Shown: one piece after another, positions 8,444-30,452 of the stretch
How positions within the stretch are numbered: the stretch's first letter is position 1
How the letters are laid out: every line of letters starts with the position of its first letter
Source of the DNA: Pseudodesulfovibrio mercurii
GTDB lineage: Bacteria; Desulfobacterota; Desulfovibrionia; Desulfovibrionales; Desulfovibrionaceae
Reading direction: 5' to 3'
NCBI RefSeq assembly: GCF_000189295.2
Contig: NC_016803.1
Location: 3,180,001-3,212,000 of the forward strand
DNA length: 32,000 nt
Program-made: the position numbers and the translations under genes
The notes under the pieces: generated by a model
What the model saw: only the letters and a program-made list of their open reading frames with translations
What the model was told of the DNA's origin: nothing
The model's database searches: none

Positions 8444-8566
8444 TGCGGATTCCTCCTTGACGCTTGGAAGCGGGATCATTTACGGTACCAGGCAGTACTC
8501 ATAAGGATGACGGGCTCTGCTGTCAATCCGGTAAATTGTGAAAATATGTTAAACGGAGGAAGCCGG
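8444..8566. promoter_or_regulatory. divergent promoter/operator region between the RND operon and its TetR regulator
   Basis: Divergent gene arrangement. Imperfect inverted repeat catttacgg (about 8476-8485) / ccggtaaattg (about 8527-8537) is a candidate operator. No promoter hexamers confidently identified. Confidence 0.3.
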
Positions 8567-9220: not shown

Positions 9221-9346
9221 TCCGCCGCCCGCCGACCGGGGCCGCTTTCGCCTTTACTCCCGCCGGAATTGCGGTATGTTGGGATCAAACGAGAATCATT
9301 CCGGGTTCGCCCGGCGCGAACCCCGACAACCCAGCGCGAGACTTTC

Positions 9347-12010: not shown

Positions 12011-12087
12011 CCGGCCAAAATGTTTCGCTCCGGGGTGGACCGCCATGCGCCATTGTCGTATGAGGTGAAAACTCATCAGGAGCGGAT

Positions 12088-13032
12088 ATGAAGGTCGAAA
12101 TAGGCGAATCGCTGGTAAGGACGTGGGTACGCCATTGCAGGGGGTGCCAACTGGCCGAACTGAACTGGAAGCCGTCCCCCATATGGCCTGGGGAGATCAC
12201 TGCCGAACACGAACAGTGGTACAGGGAAGGCGCCGCCGAGTTCTCGGGAAAAGTCTTGAAAAAGACATCCAGCCTTTCCCAGTTCCTCGGCCAGGCCGAA
12301 ATCGACGTACTCGGCGTGCAGTTCGTGCAAGGGATGGCAAGGAAAGTCATCGCCGCCGACATTGCCTTTCACACGAACGGGCTGCAATACGGCCCTAAAG
12401 CCGAGACCGCCGCCCGGATCGTCAAGAAGCTGTTTCGGACGGCTCTGACCATCGACATCCATTTCCCCGGCGTGCCCGCCGAGATCCTTTTCCTGTCCCC
12501 AAAGGTCAACAACGCTACTATCCAGGGCGTGAAGGAAGCTGCCCGGATGATGGAATCCTTCTTCCGTGGACGCCGGGACGGCTTCCGGTTCCAGACCATT
12601 ATCAACCAAGGCTTCAAAAACATCGTACTCGACGATGTGACCCCGCTCCAAAAGCAGGTGGCCGACACAAGCGAACTATATCTGCGAGCGGCCCAGCTCG
12701 TGGGGCTGTTTGAAGACCGTGTTCCGCGTCCCGCAAAGGCCACTGCCGCTCCAGCGCAATCTGCCCCACGCAAAACCGGGCAGACCCTACCCATCGAATA
12801 TGTGCCGGGCGACACCAAGGAATTCAAGCGCCTTCTTCTCAAGCAGGGTGCCGTCATCCAAGAACATTATGCCGACGGCAGAACCAAGGAAAGACAGTGG
12901 GATGCAAGCGGAATGCGTGAGACATCCAGTGTCAGCGGAAACTTGCGTTCGAAGAGCTGGTACAAGGGCGGGGCTTGGCTGACCAGCGGTATCAGCAAGA
13001 TCGTCGTGAAAATCATTGGCTACGACACCTAA
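12088..13032 (+). CDS. hypothetical protein (IS passenger); possible restriction-endonuclease-like N-terminal fold plus an unknown C-terminal domain
   Basis: AGGAG lies 5 nt upstream of the ATG. 314-aa ORF inside the IS boundaries. N-terminal pattern E7...(AEIDVLGV)...(IAADIAFH) loosely resembles a PD-(D/E)xK arrangement but lacks the Lys. I do not recognise a family. Confidence 0.65.
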   Translation: MKVEIGESLVRTWVRHCRGCQLAELNWKPSPIWPGEITAEHEQWYREGAAEFSGKVLKKTSSLSQFLGQAEIDVLGVQFVQGMARKVIAADIAFHTNGLQYGPKAETAARIVKKLFRTALTIDIHFPGVPAEILFLSPKVNNATIQGVKEAARMMESFFRGRRDGFRFQTIINQGFKNIVLDDVTPLQKQVADTSELYLRAAQLVGLFEDRVPRPAKATAAPAQSAPRKTGQTLPIEYVPGDTKEFKRLLLKQGAVIQEHYADGRTKERQWDASGMRETSSVSGNLRSKSWYKGGAWLTSGISKIVVKIIGYDT

Positions 13033-13038
13033 TCGCTG

Positions 13039-13066
13039 AAAAACAACAGAATGTTTTAAAATCCCG
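13039..13066. repeat. IS right terminal inverted repeat
   Basis: Reverse complement aligns with 10886-10913 (23/28). Confidence 0.75.
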
Positions 13067-13074
13067 TTTTTTTA
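13067..13074. repeat. right copy of the 8-bp target-site duplication TTTTTTTA
   Basis: Identical to 10878-10885. Confidence 0.8.
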
Positions 13075-13411
13075 TAGGATATGCAGGGCGCAGGGGAGGG
13101 GAAACCGGGCGGTGAAGGCCCTTTCGCGGCGGCGTTCCCGGTGTTTTTTCGGAGCCCGGCCCATCCCGAGTCGAAAAGTCGAATCGCCTCCGGCGCCTTC
13201 GGTCGTTCTTTTCGACCGACCCGGGTAGTTCCCCAGAGCCAACCCCGACCGCATCCCTCTCCGGCCGATCCGAGCCACCCCTCATCGCACCCCCGAAACA
13301 CTCCCCGGCAGGGACCGGAAACAAGGAGTGACGACCCCTTTTTCGGTCCCTGACCCGGTGGTATTTTTTTGCCCCTTTCCCCCTTGTCAGCCCCCGAAAA
13401 GGGCTTATGTT

Positions 13412-13499
13412 TTGATTGACCGATCAATTAAAATGTGAAGATTTTTTAAAAATAAAGTTAAAACAATAAGTTAAAGTGCAAAATTTTACTTCACATTTT
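13412..13499. promoter_or_regulatory. AT-rich upstream region of the ygiW-like gene with symmetric sites
   Basis: TTGAT-N6-ATCAA at 13412-13427. Perfect 11-bp inverted repeat aaaatgtgaag (13430-13440) / cttcacatttt (13489-13499), containing TGTGA/TCACA cores and separated by 48 bp of AT-rich DNA. Confidence 0.3.
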
Positions 13500-13580
13500 G
13501 TTACACTGTGGTAGATGAAAGGCATCGCCGGTTGGGAACCGGCAGTGAGAAGCCAACAAATTTACAGAGAGGATATTGTC

Positions 13581-13940
13581 ATGAAGCGTTTCACCTTTGC
13601 CCTGATGCTCGTGTTTACCGTCTTTGCCGCCACCGCTTTCGCCGCCGCCAACACCTTTGCCGGCTCGTTCCAGTCCCAGGACATGCGGGCCCACACCGTG
13701 GCCGCCGCCAACGCCTCGGGCATGGACACCGGCGTGGCCCTGCACGGCCATATCGTCAAGGTCATCAACAACGACAGCGTGCTGTTCTCCGACAATACCG
13801 GCGAACTGCTCGTGCACATTGAGAACGCCGAGACCAACCCGGCCGCCCTCACCCATGCCGACGTGGACATCAACGGCAAGATCGTCGGCGACCTCATGTA
13901 CACCGAAGTCCAGGCCGACTCCGTGACCCTGGACAAGTAA
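13581..13940 (+). CDS. YgiW/YdeI-like bacterial OB-fold (BOF) periplasmic protein
   Basis: AGAGAGGA lies upstream of ATG 13581. Signal peptide MKRFTFALMLVFTVFAATAFA|A. Size about 119 aa. Pattern ...VALHGHIVKVINNDSVLFSDNTGELLVHI...DINGKIV is typical of this family. Confidence 0.78.
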   Translation: MKRFTFALMLVFTVFAATAFAAANTFAGSFQSQDMRAHTVAAANASGMDTGVALHGHIVKVINNDSVLFSDNTGELLVHIENAETNPAALTHADVDINGKIVGDLMYTEVQADSVTLDK

Positions 13941-13964
13941 TTCCATCCATATATTCACCCAAAA

Positions 13965-13993
13965 GGGACGCCCGAAAGGGCGTCCCTTTTTTT
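13965..13993 (+). terminator. rho-independent terminator of the ygiW-like gene
   Basis: gggacgccc / gggcgtccc 9-bp stem, GAAA loop, T7 run at 13987-13993. Confidence 0.85.
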
Positions 13994-14006
13994 GTGCCTC
14001 CGGCGG

Positions 14007-14291: not shown

Positions 14292-14325
14292 AAAAAAGAA
14301 GGCCTCCCGCCGGTGGCGGGAGGCC
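14292..14325 (-). terminator. rho-independent terminator of the PFOR gene
   Basis: ggcctcccgcc / ggcgggaggcc 11-bp stem (14301-14325) followed on the minus strand by a T-rich run (plus-strand A6 at 14292-14297). Confidence 0.8.
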
Positions 14326-14401
14326 CATAACGCGGGGGTGATTCCTTAGGAGTTATATTTTGTAAGTTGCGGTCACAAAACTCCACCCGCGTTATTGTCG
14401 G

Positions 14402-18100
<3,699 letters not shown>

Positions 18101-20221
18101 CTAGAGGTTCCTCTGGCCCTGGGCCTGGATGGCGGTGATGGCCACGGTGTTGACGATGTCCCGCACGCGGCAGCCGCGCGACAGGTCGTTGACCGGCCTG
18201 TTCAGCCCCTGGAGGACCGGGCCGATGGCCACGGAGCCGGGCACGGCCCGCTGCACGGCCTTGTAGGTGTTGTTGCCGGTGTTCAGGTCCGGGAAGATGA
18301 AGACCGTGGCCCTGCCCGCCACCTCGGAGCCGGGCAGCTTGGTCCGGGCGACCTCCGGGTCCACGGCCGCGTCGTACTGGAGCGGCCCCTCGATGGGCAG
18401 GGAAAGCCCGCGCTCCCCGGCCAGTTCCTTGGCGATGGCCGTGGCCTCCACGACCTTGTCCACGTCCGCGCCCGAGCCGGACCCGCCCGTGGAATAGGAG
18501 AGCATGGCCACGAACGGGTCGATGCCGAAGAGCCGGGCGGTCTGGGCCGAACTCAGCGCGATCTCGGCCAGCTGCCGGGCGTCGGGCTTGGGATTGACCG
18601 CGCAGTCGCCGAAGCAGACCACGCGGTCGCCCATGCACATGAGGAACACGGACGAGACGATGGCGGCGTCCGGCTTGGTCTTGATGAACTCGAAGGCGGG
18701 CCGGATGGTCTGGGCCGTGGTGGTCACGGAGCCGGAGACCATGCCGTCGGCCTGGCCCGCGTGGACCATCATGGTCCCGAAATAGGTCGGGTCCACCATG
18801 CGGTCGCGGGCGTCCGCCATGCGGATGCCCTTGTGTTTGCGGGCCTCGAAGTAGCGCTCGGCGTAGTCCTCGAAGAGCGGCGAGGAGGCCGGGTCCACCA
18901 CGCGGGCGCCGTTCAGCTCCACGCCCAGGCCCGCCGCCTGGGCGGCCACGGCCTCGGGGTCGCCGAGCAGGGTGATGTCCGCCACGTTGCGCCGCTGCAA
19001 TATCTCGGTGGCCCGGAGGATGCGCTCGCTCGTGCCCTCGGGCAGGACGATGCGCATGCGCTGCGCCCTGGCCGTCTCGATGAGGTTGTATTCGAACATG
19101 ATCGGCGTGATCTTTGTGGTCCGGGAGGCGACCAGCCGGTCGCGCAGCTCCTCGATGTCCACCTGGGCCTCGAACAGGCCGATGGAGGCGGCGATCTTGG
19201 CCGGGTGTTCGGGGTCGATGGTTCCGTGCAGGGCCTGGAGGGTCTGGGTGACCATGTAGGTGTGGTCCCGGGCGCTCAGGATGGGCAGGGGCACGCCGGT
19301 CCAGCCCTCGATGAGCCGGTGCATGGACACGGAGGGCTGGATGCCGCCGGTCAGGACCATGCCCGCGATGTTCCCGTAGGCCGCGGACTGGCGCGAGGAG
19401 ATGGCCGCCAGGATGATGTCCATGCGGTCGCCGGGGGTGATGATCAGGGCCCCGTCCTCAATGTATTCCAGGAAATGGGTGATGTGCATGGCCGCGGTCA
19501 GGAAGCTGTCCACCGGGGTGTCCAGGCTGCCGTGGCCGTAGAGGACCTTGGCGTCCAGCCACTTGATGACGTCGTGGATGGTCGGGTTGCCCAGCCGCTT
19601 GTCGTCCGGGATGGCGTAGGTCAGCAGGGGCTGGGCCGTTCGGGTCCGGGCCTTGAGGTCCCTGAGCATCCCGGGGGAGAAGTCCGGCCGGGCGCGGTTG
19701 ACGATCAGCCCCAGGACCTCCAGGCCGCGCTCCTCGAAGATTTCCACCGTGCGCTGGGCCGAGCCGCACAGCTCGTCGTCGGTCCGGTCCAGGCCGTTGA
19801 CCACGACCAGGACCGGGCAGCCCAGGTTGGAGACGATGCTCACGTTGATCTCGAACTCCAGGGTGGCGCTGCCGCCGATGTAGTCCGTGCCCTCGCAGAG
19901 CACGAAGTCGTACTCCTTTTCCAGCTCCTTGAACTTGTTCAGGGTGTTCTCCAGGAGCAGGGCCTTGTTGCCGCTGTTGATCAGCCTGCGGGCCTCGCTC
20001 AGGGTGTAGCCGTAGGTCCGCTCATAGGGCTGGTCGAGCTTGAAGTGGCGCAGCAGCAGGTCGATGTCGTGGTCGCGTCGTCCCTCCAGCGGGTCGCTGA
20101 CGACCGGGCGGAACACGGCCACGTTCTGGAGGTTGGCGCGCAGCAGATGCATGACCCCGAGGACGATGGCGGACTTGCCGCTGCGGGCTTCGGTGGCTGC
20201 TATGTAGAGGCTCTTGGACAT
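18101..20221 (-). CDS. pta: phosphate acetyltransferase, long form (N-terminal CobQ/DRTGG-type regulatory region plus PTA domain)
   Basis: Start MSKSLYIAATEARSGKSAIVLGV with AGGAG upstream. The C-terminal half contains typical Pta blocks (MVSGSVTTTAQTIRPA..., SYSTGGSGSG, PVNDLSRG). Confidence 0.93.
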   Translation of the reverse strand: MSKSLYIAATEARSGKSAIVLGVMHLLRANLQNVAVFRPVVSDPLEGRRDHDIDLLLRHFKLDQPYERTYGYTLSEARRLINSGNKALLLENTLNKFKELEKEYDFVLCEGTDYIGGSATLEFEINVSIVSNLGCPVLVVVNGLDRTDDELCGSAQRTVEIFEERGLEVLGLIVNRARPDFSPGMLRDLKARTRTAQPLLTYAIPDDKRLGNPTIHDVIKWLDAKVLYGHGSLDTPVDSFLTAAMHITHFLEYIEDGALIITPGDRMDIILAAISSRQSAAYGNIAGMVLTGGIQPSVSMHRLIEGWTGVPLPILSARDHTYMVTQTLQALHGTIDPEHPAKIAASIGLFEAQVDIEELRDRLVASRTTKITPIMFEYNLIETARAQRMRIVLPEGTSERILRATEILQRRNVADITLLGDPEAVAAQAAGLGVELNGARVVDPASSPLFEDYAERYFEARKHKGIRMADARDRMVDPTYFGTMMVHAGQADGMVSGSVTTTAQTIRPAFEFIKTKPDAAIVSSVFLMCMGDRVVCFGDCAVNPKPDARQLAEIALSSAQTARLFGIDPFVAMLSYSTGGSGSGADVDKVVEATAIAKELAGERGLSLPIEGPLQYDAAVDPEVARTKLPGSEVAGRATVFIFPDLNTGNNTYKAVQRAVPGSVAIGPVLQGLNRPVNDLSRGCRVRDIVNTVAITAIQAQGQRNL

Positions 20222-20252
20222 GTCGGTCTCCTTGGACCGGCCCGGTGGAGAA

Positions 20253-20288
20253 CCGGGAGAAGGCGGTTGTCGGAGCGCCTTCTCCCGG
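20253..20288 (-). terminator. strong stem-loop between rnfB and pta (terminator/attenuator or processing site; no clear U-tract)
   Basis: Perfect 13-bp stem ccgggagaaggcg (20253-20265) / cgccttctcccgg (20276-20288). A second 9-bp hairpin is at 20291-20331. Confidence 0.35.
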
Positions 20289-20368
20289 CCGGATGCCGTG
20301 GGTGACGTCGGGGCTGTTGACGACGGCATCCGCTATGCTCCGTAGGGCATGGGGTATGGCTTGGTTGG

Positions 20369-22483
20369 TCAGTTTCCGGCCTGGGTCTCCTCGACAGGGG
20401 ATTCCTCGGCCAGGAACGGTTCGTCCCGGTCGTAGCAGACCAGGCCGCAGCGGAGGCAGCGGTCGGCTTCGGTCAGGGCCTGGGGTTCGTCGAGGGGGCC
20501 CTCCACCTCGCTGAAGGTGCAGGTGCGGTCGTCGCCGTGGCACAGGAGGGGCAGGACGGCCCGTTGTTTGCGTTCCACGTGGTCGATTTCCTTGAACAAC
20601 GTATAGGGGATCATGCCCTTCTGGGTGGTCTCGGGGACCGGGATGGCGGCCTGGGTCAGGTGGTAGTGGATGGACCGGGCCGCCTTGCGGCCGTCGCCGA
20701 TGGCCGAGATGACCAGGTCCGGGCCGGTGTAGACGTCGCCCGCCGTGAATACGCCGGGGATGGCCGTCTCGAAGGTGTCCGGGTCGGCCGCGATGGTCTG
20801 CCACTTGGTGGTCTCCAGGGCGCAGGTTCCCTCGGGATTGTCCTCGTACAGGCAGGCGAGGTCGGGCTTCTGGCCGATGGCCGGGATGATCAGGGTGGCC
20901 TCCATGCGCTGCTCGGAGCCCTCCTTCTTGATCGGGCGGCGGCGTCCGGAGGCGTCCGGTTCGCCGAGCTCCATCTCGTAGTATTCCAGGTGGGTGGCCC
21001 GGCCGTTTTCGTCGCCGATGACCCGGGCCGGGGCGGCCAGGAACGTGAACTTCACGCCCTCCTCCTCGGCCCCGTCGATCTCTTCCTCGGCGGCGGGCAT
21101 CTCGTTCCGCGTGCGCCGGTACATGAGGGTCACGTCGGCCCCCAGGCGGACGCAGGTGCGGGCCGCGTCGATGGCCGTGTTGCCGCCGCCGACCACGATG
21201 ACCTTGCTGCCGGTCTCGGGTTTCTGGCCCAGGGCGTGGGCGGTCAGGAACTCGATGCCGCCCATGACGCCGTCCAGGTCCTCGCCCTCGGCGTACATGC
21301 CGGATGCCCGCCACGCGCCGATGCCGATGAAGGTGGCGTCGAAACCCTCGGCCTTCAGGGATTCCAGGGTGAAGTCGCGGCCGAACCGGGTGTTCATGCG
21401 GGTGTCGATGCCCAGGTCCAGGATGCCCTGGATCTCCCAGTCCAGGTCCGCCTTGGGCAGGCGGTATTCCGGGATGCCGTAGCGGGTCTGGCCGCCGAGC
21501 TTGGGCATGGCGTCGAAGATGGTCGGGTGGTGGCCCAGGCGGCGCAGGAAATAGGCGCAGGACAGCCCGGCCGGGCCGCCGCCGATGACGGCCACGCGTT
21601 TGCCGGTGTCCCTGGCGCAGGGCACGGGCAGGTGGACGCCCGAGCGCAGCTCGCGGTCGGCCACGAAGCGCTTGAGCATGTTGATGCCCACCGGGGCGTC
21701 CACGTGCTGGCGGCGGCAGACCGTCTCGCACGGCCGGGGGCAGACCCGGCCGCAGGTGACCGGCAGCGGGTTGCGCTCCTTGATGGTCATGACCGCGCCG
21801 TCGTAGTCGCCCGCCTTGATCTGCTCGATATACCTGGGGATGTTGATCTGGGCCGGGCACTTCTGGCGGCACGGGGCCAGGCAGTCGGTGGTCTGGTTGA
21901 GGTGCAGCAGCCGGGCGGACATGCCGGACACGGCGATGACGCCGCGCGGGCAGGCGTCCACGCAGTTGCCGCACGCCTTGCAGCGGTTCGGGTCGATGAC
22001 CGGCAGCCCCTCGGGTCCCATGTGGATGGCGTCGAAGGGGCAGGCGCGCACGCAGGAGCCCAACCCCAGGCAGCCCTCGGGGCAGGACTTGGACCCGCCG
22101 TAGAGCAGGTGGGCGGCCCGGCAGTCCAGGGCGCCCTCGTAGTGGAAGGCGTCCTCGGCCCGCAGCCCGCCGGTGCAGTCGCGCACGGCCAGCTCGGGCT
22201 CGCGCTCGACGACCTCCTGGCCCATGAGGGCGGCGATGACCGCGATGGCCTCGGAGTCGGCCACGATGCAGGCCGAGGCCGGGGCCTTGCCCGCCACGAT
22301 GGCGGCCGCCGCGCCCGAGCAGCCCGGGAAGCCGCAGCCGCCGCAGTTGGCCCCGGGCAGGTTGTCCTCGATGAGCGCGATGCGCGGGTCCTCCTTGACG
22401 AAGAGGAGCTTCGAGGCGATGCCCAGGATGGCCGCCGCCAGCAGGCCGATGCCGAACAGAGTCAGTCCCGATGTCAGTATCAT
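20369..22483 (-). CDS. rnfB: RnfB fused in frame to a GltD-like (glutamate synthase small-subunit family) FAD/NAD(P)H oxidoreductase with a Cys-containing C-terminal extension
   Basis: Residues 1 to about 190 are RnfB-like: TM helix, CGGCGFPGC Fe-S domain, CxxCxxCxxxCP ferredoxin motifs. Residues from about 196 are GltD-like: CRQKCP...NPLPVTCGRVCPRPCETVC, then VAVIGGGPAGLSCAYFL and VIVVGGGNTAIDAAR dinucleotide folds and GVFTAGDV. Single uninterrupted 704-codon ORF. Confidence 0.88.
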   Translation of the reverse strand: MILTSGLTLFGIGLLAAAILGIASKLLFVKEDPRIALIEDNLPGANCGGCGFPGCSGAAAAIVAGKAPASACIVADSEAIAVIAALMGQEVVEREPELAVRDCTGGLRAEDAFHYEGALDCRAAHLLYGGSKSCPEGCLGLGSCVRACPFDAIHMGPEGLPVIDPNRCKACGNCVDACPRGVIAVSGMSARLLHLNQTTDCLAPCRQKCPAQINIPRYIEQIKAGDYDGAVMTIKERNPLPVTCGRVCPRPCETVCRRQHVDAPVGINMLKRFVADRELRSGVHLPVPCARDTGKRVAVIGGGPAGLSCAYFLRRLGHHPTIFDAMPKLGGQTRYGIPEYRLPKADLDWEIQGILDLGIDTRMNTRFGRDFTLESLKAEGFDATFIGIGAWRASGMYAEGEDLDGVMGGIEFLTAHALGQKPETGSKVIVVGGGNTAIDAARTCVRLGADVTLMYRRTRNEMPAAEEEIDGAEEEGVKFTFLAAPARVIGDENGRATHLEYYEMELGEPDASGRRRPIKKEGSEQRMEATLIIPAIGQKPDLACLYEDNPEGTCALETTKWQTIAADPDTFETAIPGVFTAGDVYTGPDLVISAIGDGRKAARSIHYHLTQAAIPVPETTQKGMIPYTLFKEIDHVERKQRAVLPLLCHGDDRTCTFSEVEGPLDEPQALTEADRCLRCGLVCYDRDEPFLAEESPVEETQAGN

Positions 22484-22505: not shown

Positions 22506-23081
22506 TTAGATCATGCCCTTGAAGGCGAAGAAGGCCAGGGACATGAGCCCGGCCATGATCAGCCCGATGGGCGTGCCGCGCATGGCCATGGGCAGCCGCC
22601 GCACGGCCAGCCTCTCGCGGATGCCCGCCAGCAGGACCAGGGCGAGCATGAAGCCCAACCCCGAGGCGAAGGCGAACAGGACCGTCTTGACGAAGCCGAA
22701 CTCCTCGCGCTGGCAGATGAGCGCGATGCCCATGACCGCGCAGTTGGTGGTGATCAGCGGCAGGAAGATGCCCAGGGACTTGTACAGCGGCGGGACGACC
22801 TTCTTGAGGAACATCTCCACGAACTGGACCAGGGCGGCGATGACCAGGATGAAGGCGAGCGTCTGGAGGAAGTCCAGGCCGAAGGGGGCCAGGACGTACT
22901 CCTGGACCAGCCAGGTGATGGCCGCGGCCATGACGGCCACGAAGACCACGGCCCCGCCCATGCCGACGGCCACGCCCGTGTCCCTGGAGGTGCCGATGAA
23001 CGGGCAGTTGCCCAGGTACTGGGCCAGGACGATGTTGTTGACGAACATCGCCCCGATGAAGAGAAGGAAGTATTCCTGCAT
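22506..23081 (-). CDS. rnfA: Rnf complex membrane subunit A
   Basis: 191 aa. MQEYFLLFIGAMFVNNIVLAQYLGNCPF... and ...LPLITTNCAVMG are canonical RnfA/NqrE-type blocks. Confidence 0.93.
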   Translation of the reverse strand: MQEYFLLFIGAMFVNNIVLAQYLGNCPFIGTSRDTGVAVGMGGAVVFVAVMAAAITWLVQEYVLAPFGLDFLQTLAFILVIAALVQFVEMFLKKVVPPLYKSLGIFLPLITTNCAVMGIALICQREEFGFVKTVLFAFASGLGFMLALVLLAGIRERLAVRRLPMAMRGTPIGLIMAGLMSLAFFAFKGMI

Positions 23082-23246: not shown

Positions 23247-23924
23247 TCAGCAGTTCTTGTGGCCGCAGCCGCCGCATGCGCCGCAGTCGTGGGTCGGGGC
23301 CTGGACGGCCGCCAGCCCCTTTCGCCTGCGCCGGACGTTCTCCACGAAGGTCATGATGCACAGGAGGATGCCGAGCGTGACGAAGGCGCCCGGCGCCTTG
23401 ACCATGATGCCGATGGGCTGAAAGCCCTCCCAGGCCACGTTGACCCCGAAGATCATGCCCGTGCCGAGCAGCTCGCGCAGGGCCCCGAGAAAGGTCAGGG
23501 ACAGGGTGTAGCCCACGCCCATGCCCAGGCCGTCGGCCAGGGACGGGAGCACGGGATTCTTGGAGGCGAAGGCCTCGGCCCTCCCCAGGATGATGCAGTT
23601 GACCACGATGAGCGGCACGAAGATGCCCAGCCGCTGGTAGAGCGGATAGGCGAAGGCCTGCATGAGCAGCTCCACGGCGACCACCAGGGAGGCCGCGACC
23701 ACGATGAAGCAGGCGATGCGCACCTTGGACGGGATGAACCGGCTGAGCAGGGAGACCAGCATGTTGGACAGGGCCAGGACGAAGATGACGGCTACGCCCA
23801 TGCCGAGCCCGTTGCTCGCCGTGTTGGTCACGGCCAGGGTCGGGCAGAGCCCCAGGACCAGCTTGAACGGCGGCAGGTCCGTCCACAGCCCTTTCGAGAA
23901 TTCCTTCCACAATCTGCTGTTCAT
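23247..23924 (-). CDS. rnfE: Rnf complex membrane subunit E with a Cys-rich C-terminal tail
   Basis: LGLCPTLAVTNTASNGLGMG and VPLIVVNCIILGRAEAF blocks. ATG 23924 has GGAG upstream; the alternative ATG is at 23936. Ends ...THDCGACGGCGHKNC. Confidence 0.9.
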   Translation of the reverse strand: MNSRLWKEFSKGLWTDLPPFKLVLGLCPTLAVTNTASNGLGMGVAVIFVLALSNMLVSLLSRFIPSKVRIACFIVVAASLVVAVELLMQAFAYPLYQRLGIFVPLIVVNCIILGRAEAFASKNPVLPSLADGLGMGVGYTLSLTFLGALRELLGTGMIFGVNVAWEGFQPIGIMVKAPGAFVTLGILLCIMTFVENVRRRRKGLAAVQAPTHDCGACGGCGHKNC

Positions 23925-23949
23925 TGTCGGCTCCATGCGCTGCGGCGGT

Positions 23950-24525
23950 CTAGGACCAGCCCGCGGCGAGCTTGCCTTTCAGGGCGTTGAAGATGGCGAT
24001 GGCGTCGCGCACGGCGGCCACGGTGCCGGTGGACGAGATGGTCGCCCCGGCCACGGCCTGGATGTCGCCGCCGTTCTTCTTGAGGTCCATGTGTTCCAGT
24101 GAATGGCCCCGGAACTGGGTGGTGTAGCCGTGCTCGGCCACGCGCGCGCCCACGCCGGGGGTCTCCTTGAGGGTGGTGATGCCGATGCCGGTCAGGGCCA
24201 TGGCGTGCACGTCGAAGCCGACCATGACGCCGATGTCGCCGCCGTAGCCCTTGCCCGAGGTCTCGAAGGCCACGCCCACGAGCGCGCCGTTCTTGAGGGC
24301 CGGGAACACGATCACGGTGCGGCCGTCCACCTCGAACTTCCTGCGGTCCTTGATCGGGTTGTTGTCGTACCCGGCCAGGACCGACTCGATGGCCGGGGCC
24401 TGGACATAGGTCAGGACCTGCTCCTCGATGATCGGGGCCGTGACCTGCCTGAGCGCGGCCAGGGTGATGCCCGCGATGCCGCAGATGAGCGACAGGACGA
24501 TCATCATCTTGATCATTTCCTTCAT
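23950..24525 (-). CDS. rnfG: Rnf complex subunit G (FMN-binding)
   Basis: GGAAGGAGG SD. N-terminal TM anchor. ETPGVG and flavinylation-type motif AGATISS. Confidence 0.9.
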   Translation of the reverse strand: MKEMIKMMIVLSLICGIAGITLAALRQVTAPIIEEQVLTYVQAPAIESVLAGYDNNPIKDRRKFEVDGRTVIVFPALKNGALVGVAFETSGKGYGGDIGVMVGFDVHAMALTGIGITTLKETPGVGARVAEHGYTTQFRGHSLEHMDLKKNGGDIQAVAGATISSTGTVAAVRDAIAIFNALKGKLAAGWS

Positions 24526-24528: not shown

Positions 24529-25479
24529 CTACCTCCTTCCGAACGGCTTGGGCCGGATGCGTTCCAGGACCGGGGTGAACAGGTTGGCCAGCAGGATGGC
24601 GAAGGGCACGCCGTCCGCGTAGGCCCCCCAGGTCCGGATGATGATGATCAGGGCTCCGGTCAGCAGCCCGAAGAGGAGCATGGGGATCTGCCGGTTGGGG
24701 GAGGACGGCCCGTCCGTGGCCAGGAAGAAGGCCCCGAACAGGGTGGACCCGGTCAGCAGATGGAAGGCCGGGGAGGCGTAGATGGACGGGTCGAGCCAGT
24801 GGAACAGGAAGGCGGTCAGGGCGACCCCGCCGATGACCCCCACCGGGATGATGGACGAGACGTGCCTGCGCATGACCAGGAGCATGCCGCCGAGGACCAC
24901 GCCCGCGATCTGGACCGCGCCCAGGCCGCCGAGCTGCTTGCCCAGGAAGAGCTGGCGGGTGTCGGTGATCTGGACCGCGTCCAGGCCGAAGTCCTTGAGC
25001 TGGGCCAGGGGATAGGTCAGGTCCGTGCCGAGCATGGAGGCGTTGATGTCCATGAAGGCGGGCCAGGAGATGCGGCAGATGGCCCAGCCGATGAGCGGGG
25101 CGCAGAACGGGCTGCCGCCCAGCGGGCCGAAGGCCATCTTGCCGAGCACGATGGAGGCCGCGCTGCCGAAGGTCACCAGCCACCACGGGGCCGATGCGGG
25201 CAGCAGGAAGGCGAAGGACAGCCCCACGGTGAAGGCGTGGAAGTCGTGGACCTCGGTCTCCCGGTCCATGAAGTAGTCGCAGGCCATCTCGGCCAGCACG
25301 GCGGCGGCCATGGACAGGGCCATGACGCGCACGGCGGGCATGCCGAAGGTCATGGTCGCCATGACGGCGGCGGGCAGCATGGCCACCAGGATGGTCAGCA
25401 TCCGGTCCCGCACGGTGGTGCCGCAGTGGCGGTGGGGCGGGACCGAGACGGTCAGGGCAAAGGGGTTGAGGGGCTTCAC
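24529..25479 (-). CDS. rnfD: Rnf complex membrane subunit D
   Basis: Polytopic protein with SVPPHRH near the N-terminus and FFLATDGPSSP. I set the start at GTG 25479, which overlaps the rnfC stop (GTGA) with GGGGAGG upstream. The longer ORF to 25710 overlaps rnfC. Confidence 0.87.
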   Translation of the reverse strand: MKPLNPFALTVSVPPHRHCGTTVRDRMLTILVAMLPAAVMATMTFGMPAVRVMALSMAAAVLAEMACDYFMDRETEVHDFHAFTVGLSFAFLLPASAPWWLVTFGSAASIVLGKMAFGPLGGSPFCAPLIGWAICRISWPAFMDINASMLGTDLTYPLAQLKDFGLDAVQITDTRQLFLGKQLGGLGAVQIAGVVLGGMLLVMRRHVSSIIPVGVIGGVALTAFLFHWLDPSIYASPAFHLLTGSTLFGAFFLATDGPSSPNRQIPMLLFGLLTGALIIIIRTWGAYADGVPFAILLANLFTPVLERIRPKPFGRR

Positions 25480-26579
25480 GGCAGGGGTACCTCCCCGGAC
25501 TGGGCTTTGGCCTTCGCCAATTCGCTCTTGGCGAGCCGGATGTATTGAAGCATGGGGCGGTGGGCGATGCAGAAATAGCCGCACAGGCCGCACTCGAAGC
25601 AGACGTCCACACCCTCGGCCTCGGCCTTGTCGTACCGCCCGAACTCGGCATAGCTGGTGATCATGGCCGGATCCAGCCGCGCCGGACACCGCCGCACGCA
25701 CTCCCCGCACCCCACGCAGGCGGCATCCACCACCACCGGCGCCGGGTTGCGCACCAGGCCGACGCAGGTGGTCGCGCGGTCCACGCCCTGGCCGGGCGAG
25801 GACGCGGCCGTGCCCCGGAGCACGCCGCCCAGGACGATGCGGTCGCCGTCGCGGAGGGTCTCGCCATCGGTGGTCAGGATCTCGCCCACCGGGGTGCCCA
25901 GGTCCATGAGCCGGGCCGCGTTGCCCACGGTGACCATGGTCTCCATGACCGGCAGGCCGGTCTCCATGACCAGGCCCGCGTGGAACACGGTCTCCAGGCC
26001 GATGACCAGGGTGTTGTCCGGGGCCTCGATGCCGGTCACGGCCTTGGCCACCAGGGGGTCGAGCCCCTGGGGATACTGGTCCGGCACGACCTTGACGGTC
26101 ATGTTGGGCAGGCTCTCCCGGACCGCTCCGGGCACGGCCAGGACCACGTCCACGGGCACGAATCCCCGGACCAGGGCCTCGGCCCCGGCGCGCAGGGTGT
26201 CCTGCCGCTCGGCCATGAGGGTGCGCCGGGAGTGCAGGCTCGGCTCCTCGTCCACCGCGTTGAGGATCAGGGTGTCCACCTGGTGACAGACCGGGATGTC
26301 GGCCCCGAGTTCGCGCAGGCGGGTCAGGAGTTCCGGGCCGCTCAGGCCGTCGAGGACTTCCGGGGGCACGGTCCCGCCCTCGCCGCCCTCGATGCGGATG
26401 CGGTACGGATCCACGTGCCGGACCGTGCCGGCGAAGGGGGCGTGGATGTCGCCCGCGCCGGGCCGGGACGCTGTGGCGATGCGCTCGCCGCGCGCGACCT
26501 CCTGGCCGCAGGTGACCAGCGGGCAGTGGCGGTTCAGGGTCATCTCCGCCTGGGCGGAGGGTGTTTGTTGCATGGTCAT
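25476..26579 (-). CDS. rnfC: Rnf complex subunit C, short form (367 aa) with a degenerate Gly-rich cofactor loop
   Basis: Barrel-sandwich N-terminus (GQEVARGERIA...HAPFAGTV), 51K-like core (DTLILNAVDEEPSL), SLBB-like region and two CxxCxxC(x)nCP motifs at the C-terminus. Where RnfC/NuoF normally has GLGGAGFP, this protein reads ELGADIPV. Confidence 0.85.
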   Translation of the reverse strand: MTMQQTPSAQAEMTLNRHCPLVTCGQEVARGERIATASRPGAGDIHAPFAGTVRHVDPYRIRIEGGEGGTVPPEVLDGLSGPELLTRLRELGADIPVCHQVDTLILNAVDEEPSLHSRRTLMAERQDTLRAGAEALVRGFVPVDVVLAVPGAVRESLPNMTVKVVPDQYPQGLDPLVAKAVTGIEAPDNTLVIGLETVFHAGLVMETGLPVMETMVTVGNAARLMDLGTPVGEILTTDGETLRDGDRIVLGGVLRGTAASSPGQGVDRATTCVGLVRNPAPVVVDAACVGCGECVRRCPARLDPAMITSYAEFGRYDKAEAEGVDVCFECGLCGYFCIAHRPMLQYIRLAKSELAKAKAQSGEVPLP

Positions 26580-26586: not shown

Positions 26587-27351
26587 CTACCTGCTGATGT
26601 GGCATTGTTTGCAGTTGTCCGGGCCGTAGGGGCCCGCGCCCATTTCCTCGTGGCAGGACATGCACTGGTCGTGGAAGGCGTTCATGCGCGGCAGGACCAG
26701 CTCCCTGGTCTCGGCCTCGTGGCACTGGTTGCAGGCCGAGAAGTCGCCCTTGTAGTCGGTCATGTCCTTCTGGGAGTGGCAGGACTTGCAGCTGGACAAC
26801 CCCTTGTCGAACATGTCCTCGTGGCACTGGCCGCAGCTCTTGTGTCCGGCCTCGCGCATGGACAGGAGGTTGTTCGTGCTCTTTTCCCCGTGGCAGTTGG
26901 TGCACTTCTGGGGCTCGGGCTCGATGTCCTTGCCGTGGTGGCAGTCGCCGCAGTCCGAGGCGTAGTCCTTGTGGACCTCGTGATCGAAGTTGATCTTGTC
27001 GTATTCAATGTGGTGGCAGCGCACGCAGTAGGACTCGTTGGGGAAGGAATCCATGTGATTGTCCACGAAATTCTTGTCGAAGTCGTTGGGATGGCAGGAG
27101 CCGCAGGCCAGGGCCCCGTCCTCGGGCGTGACGATGGGCTGGGTCTTGTCGTGGTGGCAGCGGGAGCATTCGATCCCGTAGTCCCGGTGGTGGACCAGGT
27201 GGGAGAAGATGACCTTGCCCCCGTTGTTCTCGAACAGGATGCGCACGGGCATCGGCTGCGTCTGGCCGGAGCGGACATAGCCGACGATGGCCACGGCCAG
27301 GAGCACTAAGGTCGCCGCCAGGACCGGAAATATTTTCGATTTTGAACGCAT
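26587..27351 (-). CDS. membrane-anchored decaheme cytochrome c (DhcA-like, first gene of the rnf cluster)
   Basis: Ten CxxCH motifs counted in the translation (CSRCH, CGSCH, CVRCH, CGDCH, CTNCH, CGQCH, CKSCH, CNQCH, CMSCH, CKQCH). N-terminal hydrophobic anchor. GGAGAGGA SD. Confidence 0.9.
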   Translation of the reverse strand: MRSKSKIFPVLAATLVLLAVAIVGYVRSGQTQPMPVRILFENNGGKVIFSHLVHHRDYGIECSRCHHDKTQPIVTPEDGALACGSCHPNDFDKNFVDNHMDSFPNESYCVRCHHIEYDKINFDHEVHKDYASDCGDCHHGKDIEPEPQKCTNCHGEKSTNNLLSMREAGHKSCGQCHEDMFDKGLSSCKSCHSQKDMTDYKGDFSACNQCHEAETRELVLPRMNAFHDQCMSCHEEMGAGPYGPDNCKQCHISR

Positions 27352-27452: not shown

Positions 27453-28994
27453 TTACTTGGGAATGACCGCCCAGCTGGGCACGGTGGTCAGGTCCACGCC
27501 CCACAGGGCCGGGAGGATGTAGACCACGAAGGCGGTGATCAGGATCGTGCCGAAGATGTTCAGCCAGACGCCCGCCTTGGCCATCTGCTTGATGCTCACG
27601 CATCCGCTGCCGAAGACGACGGCGTTGGGCGGCGTGGCCACCGGGAGCATGAAGGCGTAGGAGGCCGCCACGCAGGCGCCGACGATGGTCGCGAACGGGT
27701 GCACGCCCATGGCGATGGCCGCGGAACCCATGATGGGCACGAGCAGGGTGGCGGTGGCGGTGTTGGAGGTGATCTCGGTCAGGAAGATGGTGATCAGGAC
27801 CACGACGCCGACGAAGATGATCATGCTGGTGCCGGCGAGTCCGCCGAGCTGGCTCGCGATGTAGGCGGCCAGGCCGGTCTTGGCGAAGCCGTTGGCGATG
27901 GCCAGGCCGCCGCCGAAGAGCAGGATGACGTCCCAGGGAATCTTCACGGCGGTCTTCCAATCCAGGAGGAACTCGCCCTTCTTGAAGTCGACCGGGATGG
28001 CGAACAGGATCAGGGCGCCGAGGATACCGATGGTGGCGTCGCCCACGTACTTGAAGTGGGGCATGATGCCCAGGACGAAGGTGGACTTGGCCATGAAGCC
28101 GCGTGCCAGCCAGAAGGCGGCCATGAAACAGCCCACGACCACGATCTTCTTTTCCTGGCTGGACATGGGTCCGAGCTTCTTCACTTCGTCGTCGATGATC
28201 TGGGCGCCGCCGGCCAACTCCAGGCCGCCCATGGGGAACAGGATCTTGGTCAGCAGGAACCAGGCGAAGGCCAGGGTGATGACCGCCAGCGGGACGCCGA
28301 AGAGCATCCACTGGCCGAAGCCGATCTGCACGCCGAACATCTTCTCGACCATGCCGGCCATGACGGTGTTCGGGGGGGTGCCGATGATGGTGGCCACGCC
28401 GCCGATGGACGCGGCGTAGGCGATGCCGAGCATCAGGCCCCGGCCGAAGTTGAACTCGGGACCGACGTGGGTGGTGCCGTCACGCAGGTGCTCGGAGTCG
28501 TAGCCCGTGGCCTGCTGGATGACGGCCATGCCGATGGGGACCATCATCATGGCCGTGGCGGTGTTGGACACCCACATGGACAGGAAGCCGGTGGCGACCA
28601 TGAAGCCCATGATCATGCGCGCCGGGCTCGTGCCGATGGCCTTGATGGTGTACAGGGCCACACGGCGGTGCAGGTTCCAGCGCTCCATGGTCACGGCCAG
28701 GAAGAAGCCGCCCATGAACAGGTAGATCAGGTGGTTGGCGTAGGGGGCCGTGGACGCGGCGGACGACATGACGCCGAGCATGGGGAACAGGGCGATGGGC
28801 AGCAGGGAGGTCGCCGGAATCGGAATCGCCTCGGTGATCCACCAGATGGCCATCAGTGCGGTAACCGCCGCGACGTGCCATGCCTCTGTCTTCATGCCCT
28901 CGGGGGCCGGAATGAGCAGCATCGCGACGAGCACGATGGGTCCGAGGAAGAACCCTATGCGCTTGCCGTTGTTTGAATCAGCCTGATTGGACAT
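27453..28994 (-). CDS. DASS/SLC13-family anion:sodium symporter (probable C4-dicarboxylate transporter by context)
   Basis: Start MSNQADSNNGKRIGFFLGPIV with GAGGAG upstream. WWITEAIPIPATSLLP and TSNTATA/PPNA hairpin motifs are typical of DASS permeases. Confidence 0.88.
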   Translation of the reverse strand: MSNQADSNNGKRIGFFLGPIVLVAMLLIPAPEGMKTEAWHVAAVTALMAIWWITEAIPIPATSLLPIALFPMLGVMSSAASTAPYANHLIYLFMGGFFLAVTMERWNLHRRVALYTIKAIGTSPARMIMGFMVATGFLSMWVSNTATAMMMVPIGMAVIQQATGYDSEHLRDGTTHVGPEFNFGRGLMLGIAYAASIGGVATIIGTPPNTVMAGMVEKMFGVQIGFGQWMLFGVPLAVITLAFAWFLLTKILFPMGGLELAGGAQIIDDEVKKLGPMSSQEKKIVVVGCFMAAFWLARGFMAKSTFVLGIMPHFKYVGDATIGILGALILFAIPVDFKKGEFLLDWKTAVKIPWDVILLFGGGLAIANGFAKTGLAAYIASQLGGLAGTSMIIFVGVVVLITIFLTEITSNTATATLLVPIMGSAAIAMGVHPFATIVGACVAASYAFMLPVATPPNAVVFGSGCVSIKQMAKAGVWLNIFGTILITAFVVYILPALWGVDLTTVPSWAVIPK

Positions 28995-29068
28995 TCTACA
29001 CTCCTCAATTGGTAAGACGTTTCCATCTCGGAAAGGACCGCAACCCCAGACGGCGCTGAGGAAAAGTG

Positions 29069-29095
29069 CCGGGCGGAGCACCCCGCTCCGCCCGG
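29069..29095 (-). terminator. terminator after the malic enzyme gene
   Basis: ccgggcggagc / gctccgcccgg 11-bp stem, followed on the minus strand by cacttttcc. Confidence 0.55.
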
Positions 29096-29102
29096 TATTT
29101 AT

Positions 29103-30425
29103 TTAGATTCCAAGATGATAAGTATCAACGAAAGCGCTCACGCGGGCGCTGGAGGCCTGGATACGCTTGCCGAGCGAGGCCTTGTATTCGTCCAGGTCGA
29201 GTTGCTTGCGGGCCACGCCCTCCTCCATGGCGGCCTTGGCCACGGCCACGGAGACGTACTCGATGAGCCGCAGGTCCAGGGCCTTGGGGATGACGTAGTC
29301 GATGCCGAACTCGAGTTTGTCCACGCCGAAGGCCTCGCAGACGTATTGCGGGGCCTCGGTCTTGGCCAGGTCGGCCAGGGCCTGGGCGGCGGCCAGCTTC
29401 ATGCCTTCGGTGATGGCCGTGGCGCCGCAGTCGAGCGCGCCGCGGAAGATGAACGGGAAGCCGAGCACGTTGTTGACCTGGTTCGGGAAGTCCGAGCGGC
29501 CGGTGCCCATGATGCAGTCGGGGCGGGCGGACTTGGCGTCGTCGTAGGTGATCTCCGGGTCCGGGTTGGCGCAGGCGAAGATGATCGGGCAGTTGTCGGA
29601 CATGGACTTGACCATCTCCTTGCTGACCACGCCGCCCTTGGACAGGCCCAGGAAGCAGTCCGCGCCGACCATGGCCTCGGCCAGGGAGGCGTATTCCTTC
29701 TCGGTGGCGTACTGCTGCTTGAACTCGTTCAGGTCCGTGCGGGGCTTGTTGATGTGTCCCTTGGAGTCGAACATGGCGATGTTCTCGAACTTGACGCCCA
29801 TGTTCCGGTACAGGTTGGTGCAGGCGATGGCCGCCGCGCCCGCGCCGGAGATGACCACGCGCATGTCGGCGGCGTTCTTGCCCGAGATCTCGATGGCGTT
29901 CATCATGCCGGCGGAGGTGACGATGGCCGTGCCGTGCTGGTCGTCATGGAAGACCGGGATGTTCATTTCCTTTTTCAGCTTCTCTTCGATGTAGAAGCAT
30001 TCCGGGGCCTTGATGTCTTCGAGGTTGATGCCGCCGAAGGTCGGCTCCAGGGCCTTGACGATGTCGCACAGCTTGTCCGGGTCGCTGACGTCCAGGTCGA
30101 TGTCGTAGACGTCCACGTCGCCGAAGACCTTGAACAGCACGCCCTTGCCCTCCATGACCGGCTTGCCCGCCAGGGGCCCGATGTTGCCCAGGCCGAGCAC
30201 GGCGGTGCCGTTGGAAACCACGCCGACCAGGTTGCCCTTGCCGGTGTATTCGTAGACCAGTTCGGGATCGGCGTGGATGGCCTTGCACGCCTCGGCCACG
30301 CCGGGGCTGTACGCCATGGACAGATGTTTCTGGGTCTTGCACGGCTTGACCGGGACGACCTCGACCTTCCCCTTGCGGCCGATGGAATGATAGTCCAGGG
30401 CCTCTTGTTTGGTGAATAATGCCAT
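29103..30425 (-). CDS. NAD(P)-dependent malic enzyme (short form, no PTA domain)
   Basis: [44 protein letters not shown]... and [22 protein letters not shown] are canonical for bacterial malic enzymes. Confidence 0.93.
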
Positions 30426-30452
30426 TGTGTTATCTCCTTGAAGGTTTGTGCG

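Follow-up and report, generated by a model that had tools for sequence, protein, structure and literature searches.

The stretch of DNA analysed here, called the window in the following, comprises 32,000 nucleotides of the genome of Pseudodesulfovibrio mercurii (contig NC_016803.1, positions 3,180,001 to 3,212,000; all coordinates below are counted within the window). It contains, on the minus strand, an rnf operon that begins with a gene for a decahaem cytochrome c, continues with rnfCDGEA and ends with a gene in which RnfB is fused to a GltD-like flavoprotein module. The corresponding open reading frame (ORF), 20369..22483, starts with ATG, has zero internal stops and consists of 704 codons. 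Thus, the single 704-codon ORF that the initial annotation had named as the last rnf gene is uninterrupted and ends the cytochrome-rnfCDGEA operon. The features of the fusion gene are as follows.

20369..22483, minus strand: rnfB::gltD-like fusion gene, 704 amino acids (aa) plus stop (ORF, domain scans and full-length homologues)
22403..22483, minus strand: membrane anchor, aa 1-27, hydrophobic (MILTSGLTLFGIGLLAAAILGIASKLL), helix 2-26 in the AlphaFold2 (AF2) model, aligned with the RnfB N-termini 7zc6_B and 9eri_B
22265..22360, minus strand: RnfB 'FeS' domain, aa 42-73, with C47/C50/C55/C72 (PF04060, E 1e-11)
21926..22177, minus strand: RnfB 2x[4Fe-4S] ferredoxin-like domain, aa 103-186 (Fer4 families, alignment to 9eri_B and 7zc6_B)
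21884..21925, minus strand: fusion junction, aa 187-200, GMSARLLHLNQTTD (StnC/NfnA alignments begin at approximately aa 185-188)
21641..21883, minus strand: NfnL/GltD-like Fe-S domain, aa 201-281, with C201, C205, C209, C248, C252, C256 and K271 (PF14691, Fer4_20, E 5.6e-23)
20690..21598, minus strand: FAD and NAD(P)H Rossmann folds, aa 296-598 (Pyr_redox_2, E 1.1e-28; NAD_binding_8 at 299-335 for FAD; Pyr_redox at 427-500 for NAD(P)H)
20372..20653, minus strand: C-terminal tail, aa 611-704, with R675-C676-x2-C679-G-x2-C683 (alignments to 8oh5_C, 9bov_A and 9n5u_A)

The Pfam scan returned the domains in the order that had been predicted (RnfB FeS, Fer4, GltD Fe-S, pyridine-nucleotide folds), and both expected dinucleotide folds were matched. 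The junction, which had been placed near 21900, lies at nt 21884-21925, and the description of the protein as an RnfB core followed by a complete GltD/NfnB-type Fe-S/FAD/NAD(P)H module agrees with Pfam and NCBIfam. In the latter collection the RnfB models extend from aa 1 to approximately 192, and aa 196-688 are matched by the GltD-like models PRK12771 and PRK12814.

The N-terminal 186 residues are predicted to form a normal RnfB core with transmembrane (TM) helix, FeS domain and 2x[4Fe-4S] domain. Residues 6-192 align with the solved RnfB structures 9eri_B (residues 15-189, E 4e-50) and 7zc6_B (residues 8-195, E 8e-46). The 2x[4Fe-4S] domain contains ten invariant cysteines (C103, C121, C134, C138, C144, C148, C168, C171, C174 and C178), and two Fer4 motifs were found by Pfam at approximately aa 135-183. 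The two halves of the protein are joined without a linker, only 22 residues lying between the last RnfB cysteine (C178) and the first GltD cysteine (C201). In the AF2 model the fusion protein reached a pLDDT of 75.7 and a pTM of 0.70.

Despite this similarity, the fusion protein stays below the curated RnfB cutoffs (PRK07118 models, 166-173 bits vs 252-445; TIGR01944, 67.2 vs 68.7); the C-terminal polyferredoxin part of RnfB is replaced. Taken at face value, such scores would fit a protein that is not a working Rnf subunit, be it a paralogue in decay or with a regulatory role, or a soluble oxidoreductase merely encoded beside rnf. Among the homologous loci used for comparison, which are labelled here with L and a number, two distant members (L011 and L015) have degenerate NAD(P)H folds and one homologue lies in a non-rnf, Bfu-like gene set (L013), which would also be in line with this explanation. 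We nevertheless consider it hardly credible. The fusion gene is the sole rnfB-like gene of the operon and adjoins rnfA in the rnfB position, and the protein retains the TM anchor and the small [4Fe-4S] FeS domain, which in canonical RnfB is the contact to RnfA/E. Further, every cofactor ligand is invariant over 54 homologues, the set over which residue conservation in the fusion family was counted, and few segments of the operon are as well conserved as the GltD part.

The protein search revealed more than 120 clusters (at 90% identity) with proteins of approximately 700 aa and the same domain set, originating from isolates and metagenomes and showing 60-93% identity. Their sources include Pseudodesulfovibrio, Maridesulfovibrio, Desulfocurvibacter africanus, Desulfovibrio inopinatus and many metagenome-assembled genomes (MAGs). 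When clustered at 50%, the full-length fusions form only about eight clusters with identity down to 38%, and some of these clusters are Desulfobacterales or Desulfobacteraceae MAGs. In four independent genomes (L001-L004), and also in L010, the RnfB half runs in frame straight into the GltD half, and the gene order cytc-rnfC-D-G-E-A-fusion is found in L001-L004, L010, L011 and L017. In L004, the most distant of the four genomes, the GltD half is 80% identical, as compared to 44% for RnfC and 62% for RnfG. A contig scan baited with RnfG yielded eight loci, five of which were useful. An assembly artefact or a frameshift at the junction was ruled out by the continuous ORF and by the in-frame fusion in many independent genomes.

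Several Pseudodesulfovibrio genomes harbour two or three paralogous fusion genes with approximately 62-63% identity (proteins P0072, P0016 and P0081), P0072 being the second paralogue of P. mercurii. The second copy in P. tunisiensis (L017) belongs to a complete second cytc-rnfCDGEA-fusion operon, which is adjoined by Hdr/Flox-like genes.

In a paper from 2024 the gene was wrongly described as a loss of rnfB; the RnfB of this lineage is fused, not lost. A paper from 2025 mentions the fusion in passing, and a 2025 review on RNF and NQR makes no mention of Desulfovibrio, NADPH or fused variants. Our searches of the literature for RnfB-GltD fusions and NADPH found no characterisation, and the degenerate RnfC and RnfD sites presented below were not found described in the literature searched, the coverage of which was incomplete. 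The initial annotation had left it in doubt whether this architecture has been characterised; the searches speak for an uncharacterised one. In summary, the fusion is a real, widespread and uncharacterised variant of Rnf.

Which kind of flavoprotein module was added to RnfB? The best solved matches to aa ~187-685 are Tsi (Thermococcus sibiricus) NfnA (9n5u_A, E 1e-129), Csac (C. saccharolyticus) NfnA (9bov_A) and S. ovata StnC (8oh5_C, E 5e-114), and bifurcating NfnL/NfnB (E approximately 1e-90), GltD (1e-67) and DPD rank lower. Foldseek with the AF2 model gave the same ranking as the sequence comparison to structures. Outside the fusion family, the top matches among cluster representatives are nearly all StnC/NfnA-like proteins of 1,100-1,250 aa, covering aa 187-685. 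The module thus most resembles the GltD-like domain of StnC/NfnA, which serves as NADPH entry and passes electrons from a non-bifurcating FAD into an Fe-S chain (PMC10482914, PMC12018979). The fold motifs are VIGGGPAGLS for FAD and VVGGGNTAID together with Y455-R456-R457-T458, a motif for the 2'-phosphate of NADPH; the arginines R456/R457 of this YRR motif are common to the NADPH-specific NfnA, StnC and NfnL. C47/C50/C55/C72, K271, the six module cysteines, R456/R457 and the FAD glycines are invariant in 54 of 54 fusion homologues. In the StnC/NfnA-like proteins K271, R456 and R457 are kept in 40 of 40, and most of the six Fe-S cysteines in 39-40 of 40.

By its sequence the module is therefore classified as an NADPH-input domain of the StnC/NfnA (Bfu) type with predicted sites for two [4Fe-4S] clusters, FAD and NADPH. 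A plain GltD, SudA or DPD identity was ruled out, since the StnC/NfnA type matches far better and covers the tail too. The GltD family cutoffs were missed (TIGR01317, 225 bits vs 448; TIGR01318, 318 vs 483), and there is no gltB in the window. It was also considered whether H194 is the conserved histidine of StnC/NfnA; this was rejected, as that histidine aligns with Q197 (family consensus E) and H194 lies three residues upstream.

An important position is the proximal [4Fe-4S] cluster, which in StnC and NfnA is held by three cysteines and a lysine (StnC K170, NfnA K165), while bifurcating NfnL has a glutamate (PMC10482914, PMC12018979). K271 of the fusion protein (LKRFVAD) aligns with StnC K170 and Tsi NfnA K165, the NfnL counterpart being LERFVAD, and would accordingly be a ligand of the proximal cluster. 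The two-residue insertion of NfnL (CPxxxxCE) is not present in the fusion module. These differences bear on a further explanation, namely that the FAD splits the electron pair of NADPH as in Nfn, one electron being pushed uphill to reduce ferredoxin and the other entering the Rnf chain downhill. The homology of the module to NfnL/NfnB (5jca_L and 4ylf_B, E 1e-89 to 1e-91), the conserved arginine near the flavin N5, which all relatives share, and two possible Fe-S exits, one through the tail motif and one through the RnfB clusters, are consistent with such a scheme. It is very unlikely, given that a lysine stands in place of the NfnL glutamate, that the insertion is absent and that the nearest relatives were found experimentally to be non-bifurcating (PMC10482914, PMC12018979). 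In addition, no gene for an NfnS/NfnA-type [2Fe-2S]/FAD partner was found in the 32-kb window. The Nfn-like bifurcating add-on proposed in the initial annotation is thus disfavoured, and the NADPH coupling proposed there is plausible in view of the YRR 2'-phosphate motif and the StnC/NfnA relatives.

The tail of approximately 95 aa had been regarded as a further addition to the protein. Its alignments reach residue 569 of 8oh5_C, residue 571 of 9bov_A and residues 546-596 of 9n5u_A, and the GltD-like domain of StnC was defined as residues 102-565 (PMC10482914). Because the alignment to StnC extends up to residue 569, we assign the tail to the C-terminal part of the StnC/NfnA-type module itself, where it appears to keep the first part of the next cluster motif: C676, C679 and C683 of R675-C676-x2-C679-G-x2-C683 are invariant in the 54 homologues, and the StnC/NfnA-like proteins have at this position a four-cysteine motif, RCxxCGCx5C. 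By analogy to the cluster that follows the GltD clusters in StnC/NfnA, the tail probably ligates or helps to ligate a further cluster. The CHGDDRTC motif, which had been pointed out as extra cysteines and could have been an additional conserved cluster site, was rejected, because it is poorly conserved (C648 in 40 and C655 in 39 of the 54 homologues). C544 is invariant and C554 is present in 53 of 54, both being conserved only inside the Desulfovibrionaceae clade. The fusion protein ends at aa 704 without a NuoG/Fdh domain, and no NuoE/NuoF-like genes were found in the window.

Such genes occur at two distant loci. At L013 (6912-11317) an RnfB-like::GltD protein is encoded outside an rnf operon; the neighbours are NuoE-like, DRTGG, NuoF-like and rseC genes, that is, a Bfu/Stn-like set with a membrane anchor. 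At L015 (3692-19173) a complete cytc-rnf operon is followed by genes for a 940-aa NuoG/Fdh-like protein and a NuoF-like protein, an arrangement which hints at a possible Rnf-Bfu super-assembly. Judged from their gene content, these sets link the fusion family and the Bfu enzymes in evolution, and in this way the fusion connects the Rnf and the Bfu/Stn module families.

The remaining genes of the operon are listed below.

22506..23081, minus strand: rnfA (TIGR01943, 257 bits, over cutoff)
23247..23936, minus strand: rnfE (PRK12405/TIGR01948, over cutoff), with a Cys-rich C-terminal tail, HDCGACGGCGHKNC
23950..24525, minus strand: rnfG of the DVU2794 type (NF045876, 296 bits), AGATISS flavinylation motif kept
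24529..25479, minus strand: rnfD (TIGR01946), probable GTG start overlapping the rnfC stop
25476..26579, minus strand: rnfC, 367 aa, ORF not extendable (147.9 bits vs the rnfC cutoff of 245.95; weak Complex1_51K)
26587..27351, minus strand: decahaem cytochrome c, DhcA-like, first gene of the operon (Cytochrom_CIII and C7 matches), 10 CxxCH, N-terminal membrane anchor

RnfC of the window is 100% identical to a protein of P. mercurii; it aligns with solved RnfC from the Protein Data Bank only from approximately residue 149 on. Two canonical RnfC proteins, from Bacteroidales (L006) and Cellvibrio (L007), were used as controls in the alignment. A deletion of 14 aa takes out the GLGGA(G/T)FPTxVKL loop for FMN and NADH, and two further motifs are degenerate (ECEPY is changed to DEEPS and YPxGG to YPQGL); both [4Fe-4S] motifs are kept. 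The signature GGAxFP is present in both controls and in none of the 120 RnfC homologues retrieved with the window RnfC. Elsewhere the loop was lost by independent substitutions, namely in L012 (VKNIPSETLPEAER), L014 (YLACAPGNPPWSI), L015 (LP--GTTP) and L016 (GIVSISNGSSPVHLKL), and in none of 11 operons examined does a fusion coexist with an intact RnfC nucleotide site. Because RnfC lost its FMN-NADH signature, the GltD module is the only recognisable NAD(P)H site predicted for the complex. It had originally been taken for a second, extra pyridine-nucleotide site; this does not hold, since the signature is lost in every fusion-bearing rnf operon examined.

In RnfD, the threonine that is flavinylated in canonical proteins ((A/S)AT(P/V)L) aligns with a tyrosine in the window (LTYPL), as judged from the alignment alone. 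Most of the related cytochrome-linked operons have Y, A or D at this site, and a hydroxyl residue is found only in L016 (Thr) and L011 (Ser). The Cys-rich tail of RnfE, HDCGACGGCGHKNC, could be a metal or Fe-S site. It is kept in the lineage with the deleted RnfC (L001-L004, L009-L011 and L017); canonical RnfE (L006, L007) lacks it, and so do L012 and L014-L016.

The loss of the RnfC site in operons with the fusion raises the question whether the NAD(P)H site was simply moved, so that the complex would be an ion-translocating ferredoxin:NADP+ oxidoreductase. The module, tethered to RnfB, would dock on RnfC and replace the lost FMN/NAD site at the end of the path from ferredoxin over RnfB, RnfA/E, RnfG, RnfD and the Fe-S clusters of RnfC to the GltD module and NADP+. 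Indeed, the fusion co-occurs with the loss of the RnfC site in several independent sequence states, including the cytochrome c-free loci L012 and L016, and the retention of both [4Fe-4S] motifs in RnfC would make sense. This explanation would also be in line with the near lack of a phenotype of the dhcA mutant of D. alaskensis G20 and with the fact that Nfn is the only other known way in Desulfovibrio to keep NADPH reduced (PMC4215793). On the other hand, with a linker-free junction and 22 residues between the cysteine ligands a direct wire is to be expected, which would short-circuit the pump, and the homology to StnC/NfnA makes the domain N-terminal to the module its electron partner. Moreover, the absence of the RnfD flavinylation threonine in most operons argues against a working RnfG-RnfD-RnfC path, and unfused operons have the same degenerate RnfC. 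Altogether, we regard a relocated output site as unlikely. A complex of reversed polarity, with ferredoxin reacting at RnfC and NADPH at RnfB in a Fd:NADP+ (Fd, ferredoxin) reaction, was rejected by reasoning: exergonic flow from RnfC to RnfB would mean ion import, the polarity of the pump being fixed.

Based on the features described above, we propose that the fusion protein is the electron-input subunit of a rewired, NQR-like Rnf, into which NADPH enters via RnfB, and we assign to this interpretation a probability of roughly 55%. NADPH would give a hydride to the non-bifurcating FAD of the module, and single electrons would then pass over the [4Fe-4S] clusters of the module and the contiguous RnfB clusters to the [2Fe-2S] cluster of RnfA/E and finally to the covalent FMN of RnfG at the periplasmic side. 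The direction from NADPH to RnfG would be the one that drives ion export in Rnf and NQR. The module and RnfB probably form one continuous electron wire, because they are joined without a linker and because an N-terminal Fe-S domain is the electron partner of the module in StnC/NfnA. The exit acceptor should have a higher potential than NADPH; most likely it would be the decahaem cytochrome c of the operon and then the periplasmic cytochrome c3 pool, and alternatively electrons could leave via a RnfC with Fe-S clusters only to some cytoplasmic acceptor. The reaction would be reversible, so that an ion gradient could drive the formation of NADPH from periplasmic electrons.

The partner genes of the fusion-bearing operons vary, a multihaem cytochrome c with 4-12 haems being encoded in most of them. 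At the metagenomic locus L016 (7116-10158; apbE-rnfCDGEA-fusion), a cytochrome b gene (Ni_hydr_CYTB) follows directly after the fusion gene and there is no cytochrome c gene, which suggests a quinone-linked version of the same design. One may go further and ask whether these complexes constitute a third, independently evolved class of RNF/NQR-type pumps, an NADPH:multihaem-cytochrome c oxidoreductase in which an NfnL-like NADPH dehydrogenase was grafted onto RnfB as input module, electrons leave at the periplasmic RnfG flavin, the flavin sites of RnfC and RnfD are lost and some lineages have a cytochrome b as partner. We put this forward tentatively and would give it clearly less than even odds.

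Several points weigh against NADPH input through RnfB as outlined here. L009, which has an ordinary unfused RnfB of 308 aa and an apbE gene, shows the same deleted RnfC and substituted RnfD; therefore, the fusion is not required by those losses. The loss of a sequence motif is also no proof that RnfC cannot bind a nucleotide or a flavin. Ferredoxin may still reduce the retained 2x[4Fe-4S] domain of RnfB, and the confidence of the AF2 model is moderate, with low values for aa 104-141 and some of the tail. The NAD(P)H fold is degenerate or altered in some distant members (L011 and L015; CLE/LRE in L012 and L013). No cytochrome gene is adjacent to the operon in L012 and a cytochrome b is encoded in L016, so that the acceptor varies among the loci. 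From NADPH (approximately -320 mV) to low-potential c3-type haems the driving force is small; therefore, the direction in vivo is uncertain. Finally, in D. alaskensis G20, which has the unfused type of Rnf, the mutant in the cytochrome gene dhcA was nearly without phenotype while rnf mutants were affected (PMC4215793), and this makes the cytochrome weaker as an obligatory acceptor.

As for earlier views on the complex, Desulfovibrio Rnf was always modelled as a ferredoxin:NADH oxidoreductase, an activity that was never demonstrated; ion transport coupled to Fd:NAD+ was attempted in G20 vesicles without success (PMC4841214).

The operon is embedded in a conserved neighbourhood. The genes for fumarase alpha/beta, malic enzyme and a dicarboxylate carrier (DASS), the cytc-rnf operon and pta make up a block whose synteny extends to L001-L004; the window has, in addition, the gene for pyruvate:ferredoxin oxidoreductase (PFOR).

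14402-20329 and 27453-31849, minus strand: syntenic neighbours in the window, with the PFOR gene (por) after pta
14300..14326, minus strand: terminator-like hairpin after por, 12-bp stem with 10 GC pairs, followed by a T-run

Downstream of the cytochrome gene, the minus strand has no other strong terminator-like hairpin besides that at 14300..14326. There is no apbE gene after the operon, unlike in L009. The predicted neighbouring enzymes would convert fumarate and malate to acetyl-phosphate, NADPH and reduced ferredoxin, the best NCBIfam match being the sole basis for the NADP specificity of the malic enzyme. In D. alaskensis G20, nfnAB-2 has the genes for fumarase and NADP-dependent malate dehydrogenase as neighbours, mutants in Rnf or NfnAB-2 show impaired growth with malate or fumarate, and the authors proposed a route from NADPH over Nfn and ferredoxin to Rnf (PMC4215793). 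By analogy, the NfnL-like module on RnfB suggests a shortcut of this route, in which NADPH from malate oxidation would be taken up directly.

The same neighbourhood prompts consideration of an Rnf with dual input, in which ferredoxin reduced by the adjacent PFOR and NADPH from malic enzyme would both feed one RnfB Fe-S chain, the rest of the complex being as in the unfused Desulfovibrio Rnf. It overlaps with our proposal and differs from it solely in ferredoxin as an additional donor. In its favour, the 2x[4Fe-4S] domain of RnfB is invariant, as are the extra cysteines C103 and C121. The fusion gene is directly followed by pta and por without an intervening terminator-like site, malic enzyme is encoded upstream, and ferredoxin is presumably the donor in unfused relatives that have the same RnfC and cytochrome. 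Yet the module replaces exactly those C-terminal polyferredoxin domains of RnfB where ferredoxin binds in complexes of known structure (PMC12174285), and this renders a second donor doubtful in our opinion.

Other observations in the window concern genes at its left side. An IS1595-family transposase gene (10964-12010, plus strand) lies just downstream of the por terminator, in a stretch of lower G+C content, 55-58% vs approximately 67% (12000-14000). A gene for an RND efflux pump (AcrB family, 1055 aa) is located beside a gene for an HlyD-type membrane-fusion protein (4024-8479, minus strand), and a HerA-like helicase gene is found at 9269-10828 (plus strand); these are unrelated to the fusion.

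The description of the fusion is important for several reasons. The electron route from NAD(P)H to sulfate reduction has been called a long-standing mystery of Desulfovibrio energetics (PMC4215793). Two testable statements emerge from our analysis: that the whole Desulfovibrionaceae Rnf lineage is without the canonical RnfC NADH/FMN signature, and that in a large sub-lineage, for the most part marine, RnfB has instead acquired an NADPH-oxidising flavoprotein. If NADPH input is true, RnfB and NqrF would be joined by a third type of input module in the RNF/NQR superfamily, a case of convergence on the NQR design. A different redox node would then be needed in metabolic models of Pseudodesulfovibrio and Maridesulfovibrio, among them ND132, the model strain for mercury methylation. 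If in addition the complexes represent a third pump class, the NADPH pool of sulfate reducers would be linked directly and reversibly, with conservation of energy, to the cytochrome c3 network of the periplasm. P. mercurii ND132 is genetically tractable, and the question is directly testable there.

How does the system compare to known ones? Its closest relatives with respect to the module are StnC and NfnA from S. ovata StnABC (8oh5), Caldicellulosiruptor NfnABC (9bov) and Thermococcus sibiricus NfnABC (9n5u), with 40-50% identity over aa ~187-685 and E 1e-114 to 1e-129. They share with it the six cysteines, the lysine ligand, the FAD fold, the GGGNTA...YRRT fold, the RCxxCG tail and an Fe-S domain directly N-terminal to the module. 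This N-terminal domain is a [2Fe-2S] or related domain in StnC/NfnA and a membrane-anchored RnfB core in the fusion. Moreover, StnC/NfnA continue into a NuoG/Fdh-like domain of approximately 600 aa toward a HydBC-like bifurcating core, whereas the fusion ends about 20 residues past RCxxCGxxC and lacks the fourth cysteine of CxxCxCx5C, and their conserved histidine, aligned with Q197, is not conserved in the fusions. With NfnAB/NfnSL (T. maritima 4ylf, P. furiosus 5jca) the module has the fold and cofactors of the large subunit (E approximately 1e-90) and the YRR NADPH motif in common; in contrast, NfnL has a glutamate ligand and a 2-aa insertion, both absent from the fusion module, and requires NfnS, for which no gene of this type is present in the window.

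As compared to canonical Rnf (A. woodii 9eri, C. tetanomorphum 7zc6, A. vinelandii 8ahx), the window has the same rnfCDGEAB order, the TM helix, the FeS domain and the first 2x[4Fe-4S] domain, and its RnfA, RnfE and RnfG score over the family cutoffs. It differs by the FAD/NADPH module in place of the polyferredoxin C-terminus, the decahaem cytochrome c gene, the Cys-rich RnfE tail, an RnfC without the FMN/NADH loop and an RnfD without the flavinylated threonine. Nearer to the window stands the Rnf of the D. alaskensis G20 / D. vulgaris type (dhcA-rnfCDGEAB-apbE; L009), which shares the decahaem cytochrome gene, the 14-aa deletion in RnfC, the RnfD substitution, the DVU2794-type RnfG and the Cys-rich RnfE tail, but has a polyferredoxin RnfB of approximately 308 aa followed by apbE where the window has the NADPH module followed by pta-por. 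In Methanosarcina acetivorans, too, a multihaem c-type cytochrome (MmcA) is encoded in the rnf operon and the acceptor is not NAD+ (PMC12174285); that system is archaeal, uses ferredoxin as donor via a normal RnfB and has no GltD module.

The most instructive comparison is that with Na+-NQR, in which NqrF, composed of a TM helix, a small Fe-S domain and an FAD/NADH domain, takes the place of RnfB and NqrA is a cofactor-less homologue of RnfC (PMC12174285). Both systems have a flavin/pyridine-nucleotide input at the RnfB position and an RnfC homologue without a nucleotide site, and for both an exit to an acceptor of higher potential instead of NAD+ is known or proposed (PMC12174285). Unlike the window protein, NqrF is of the FNR type with [2Fe-2S] and NADH; the module of the fusion is of the NfnL/GltD type with [4Fe-4S] clusters and an NADPH motif, and the two are non-homologous. 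Also unlike NQR, the window retains RnfB, its RnfC keeps two [4Fe-4S] motifs, and the putative acceptor is a cytochrome c instead of a quinone. No FNR-type domain was found by Pfam in the fusion protein, and the subunits encoded in the window score best as Rnf, not as Nqr. Thus, as far as the sequences tell, the likeness to NQR is a functional and architectural convergence and not membership in that family.

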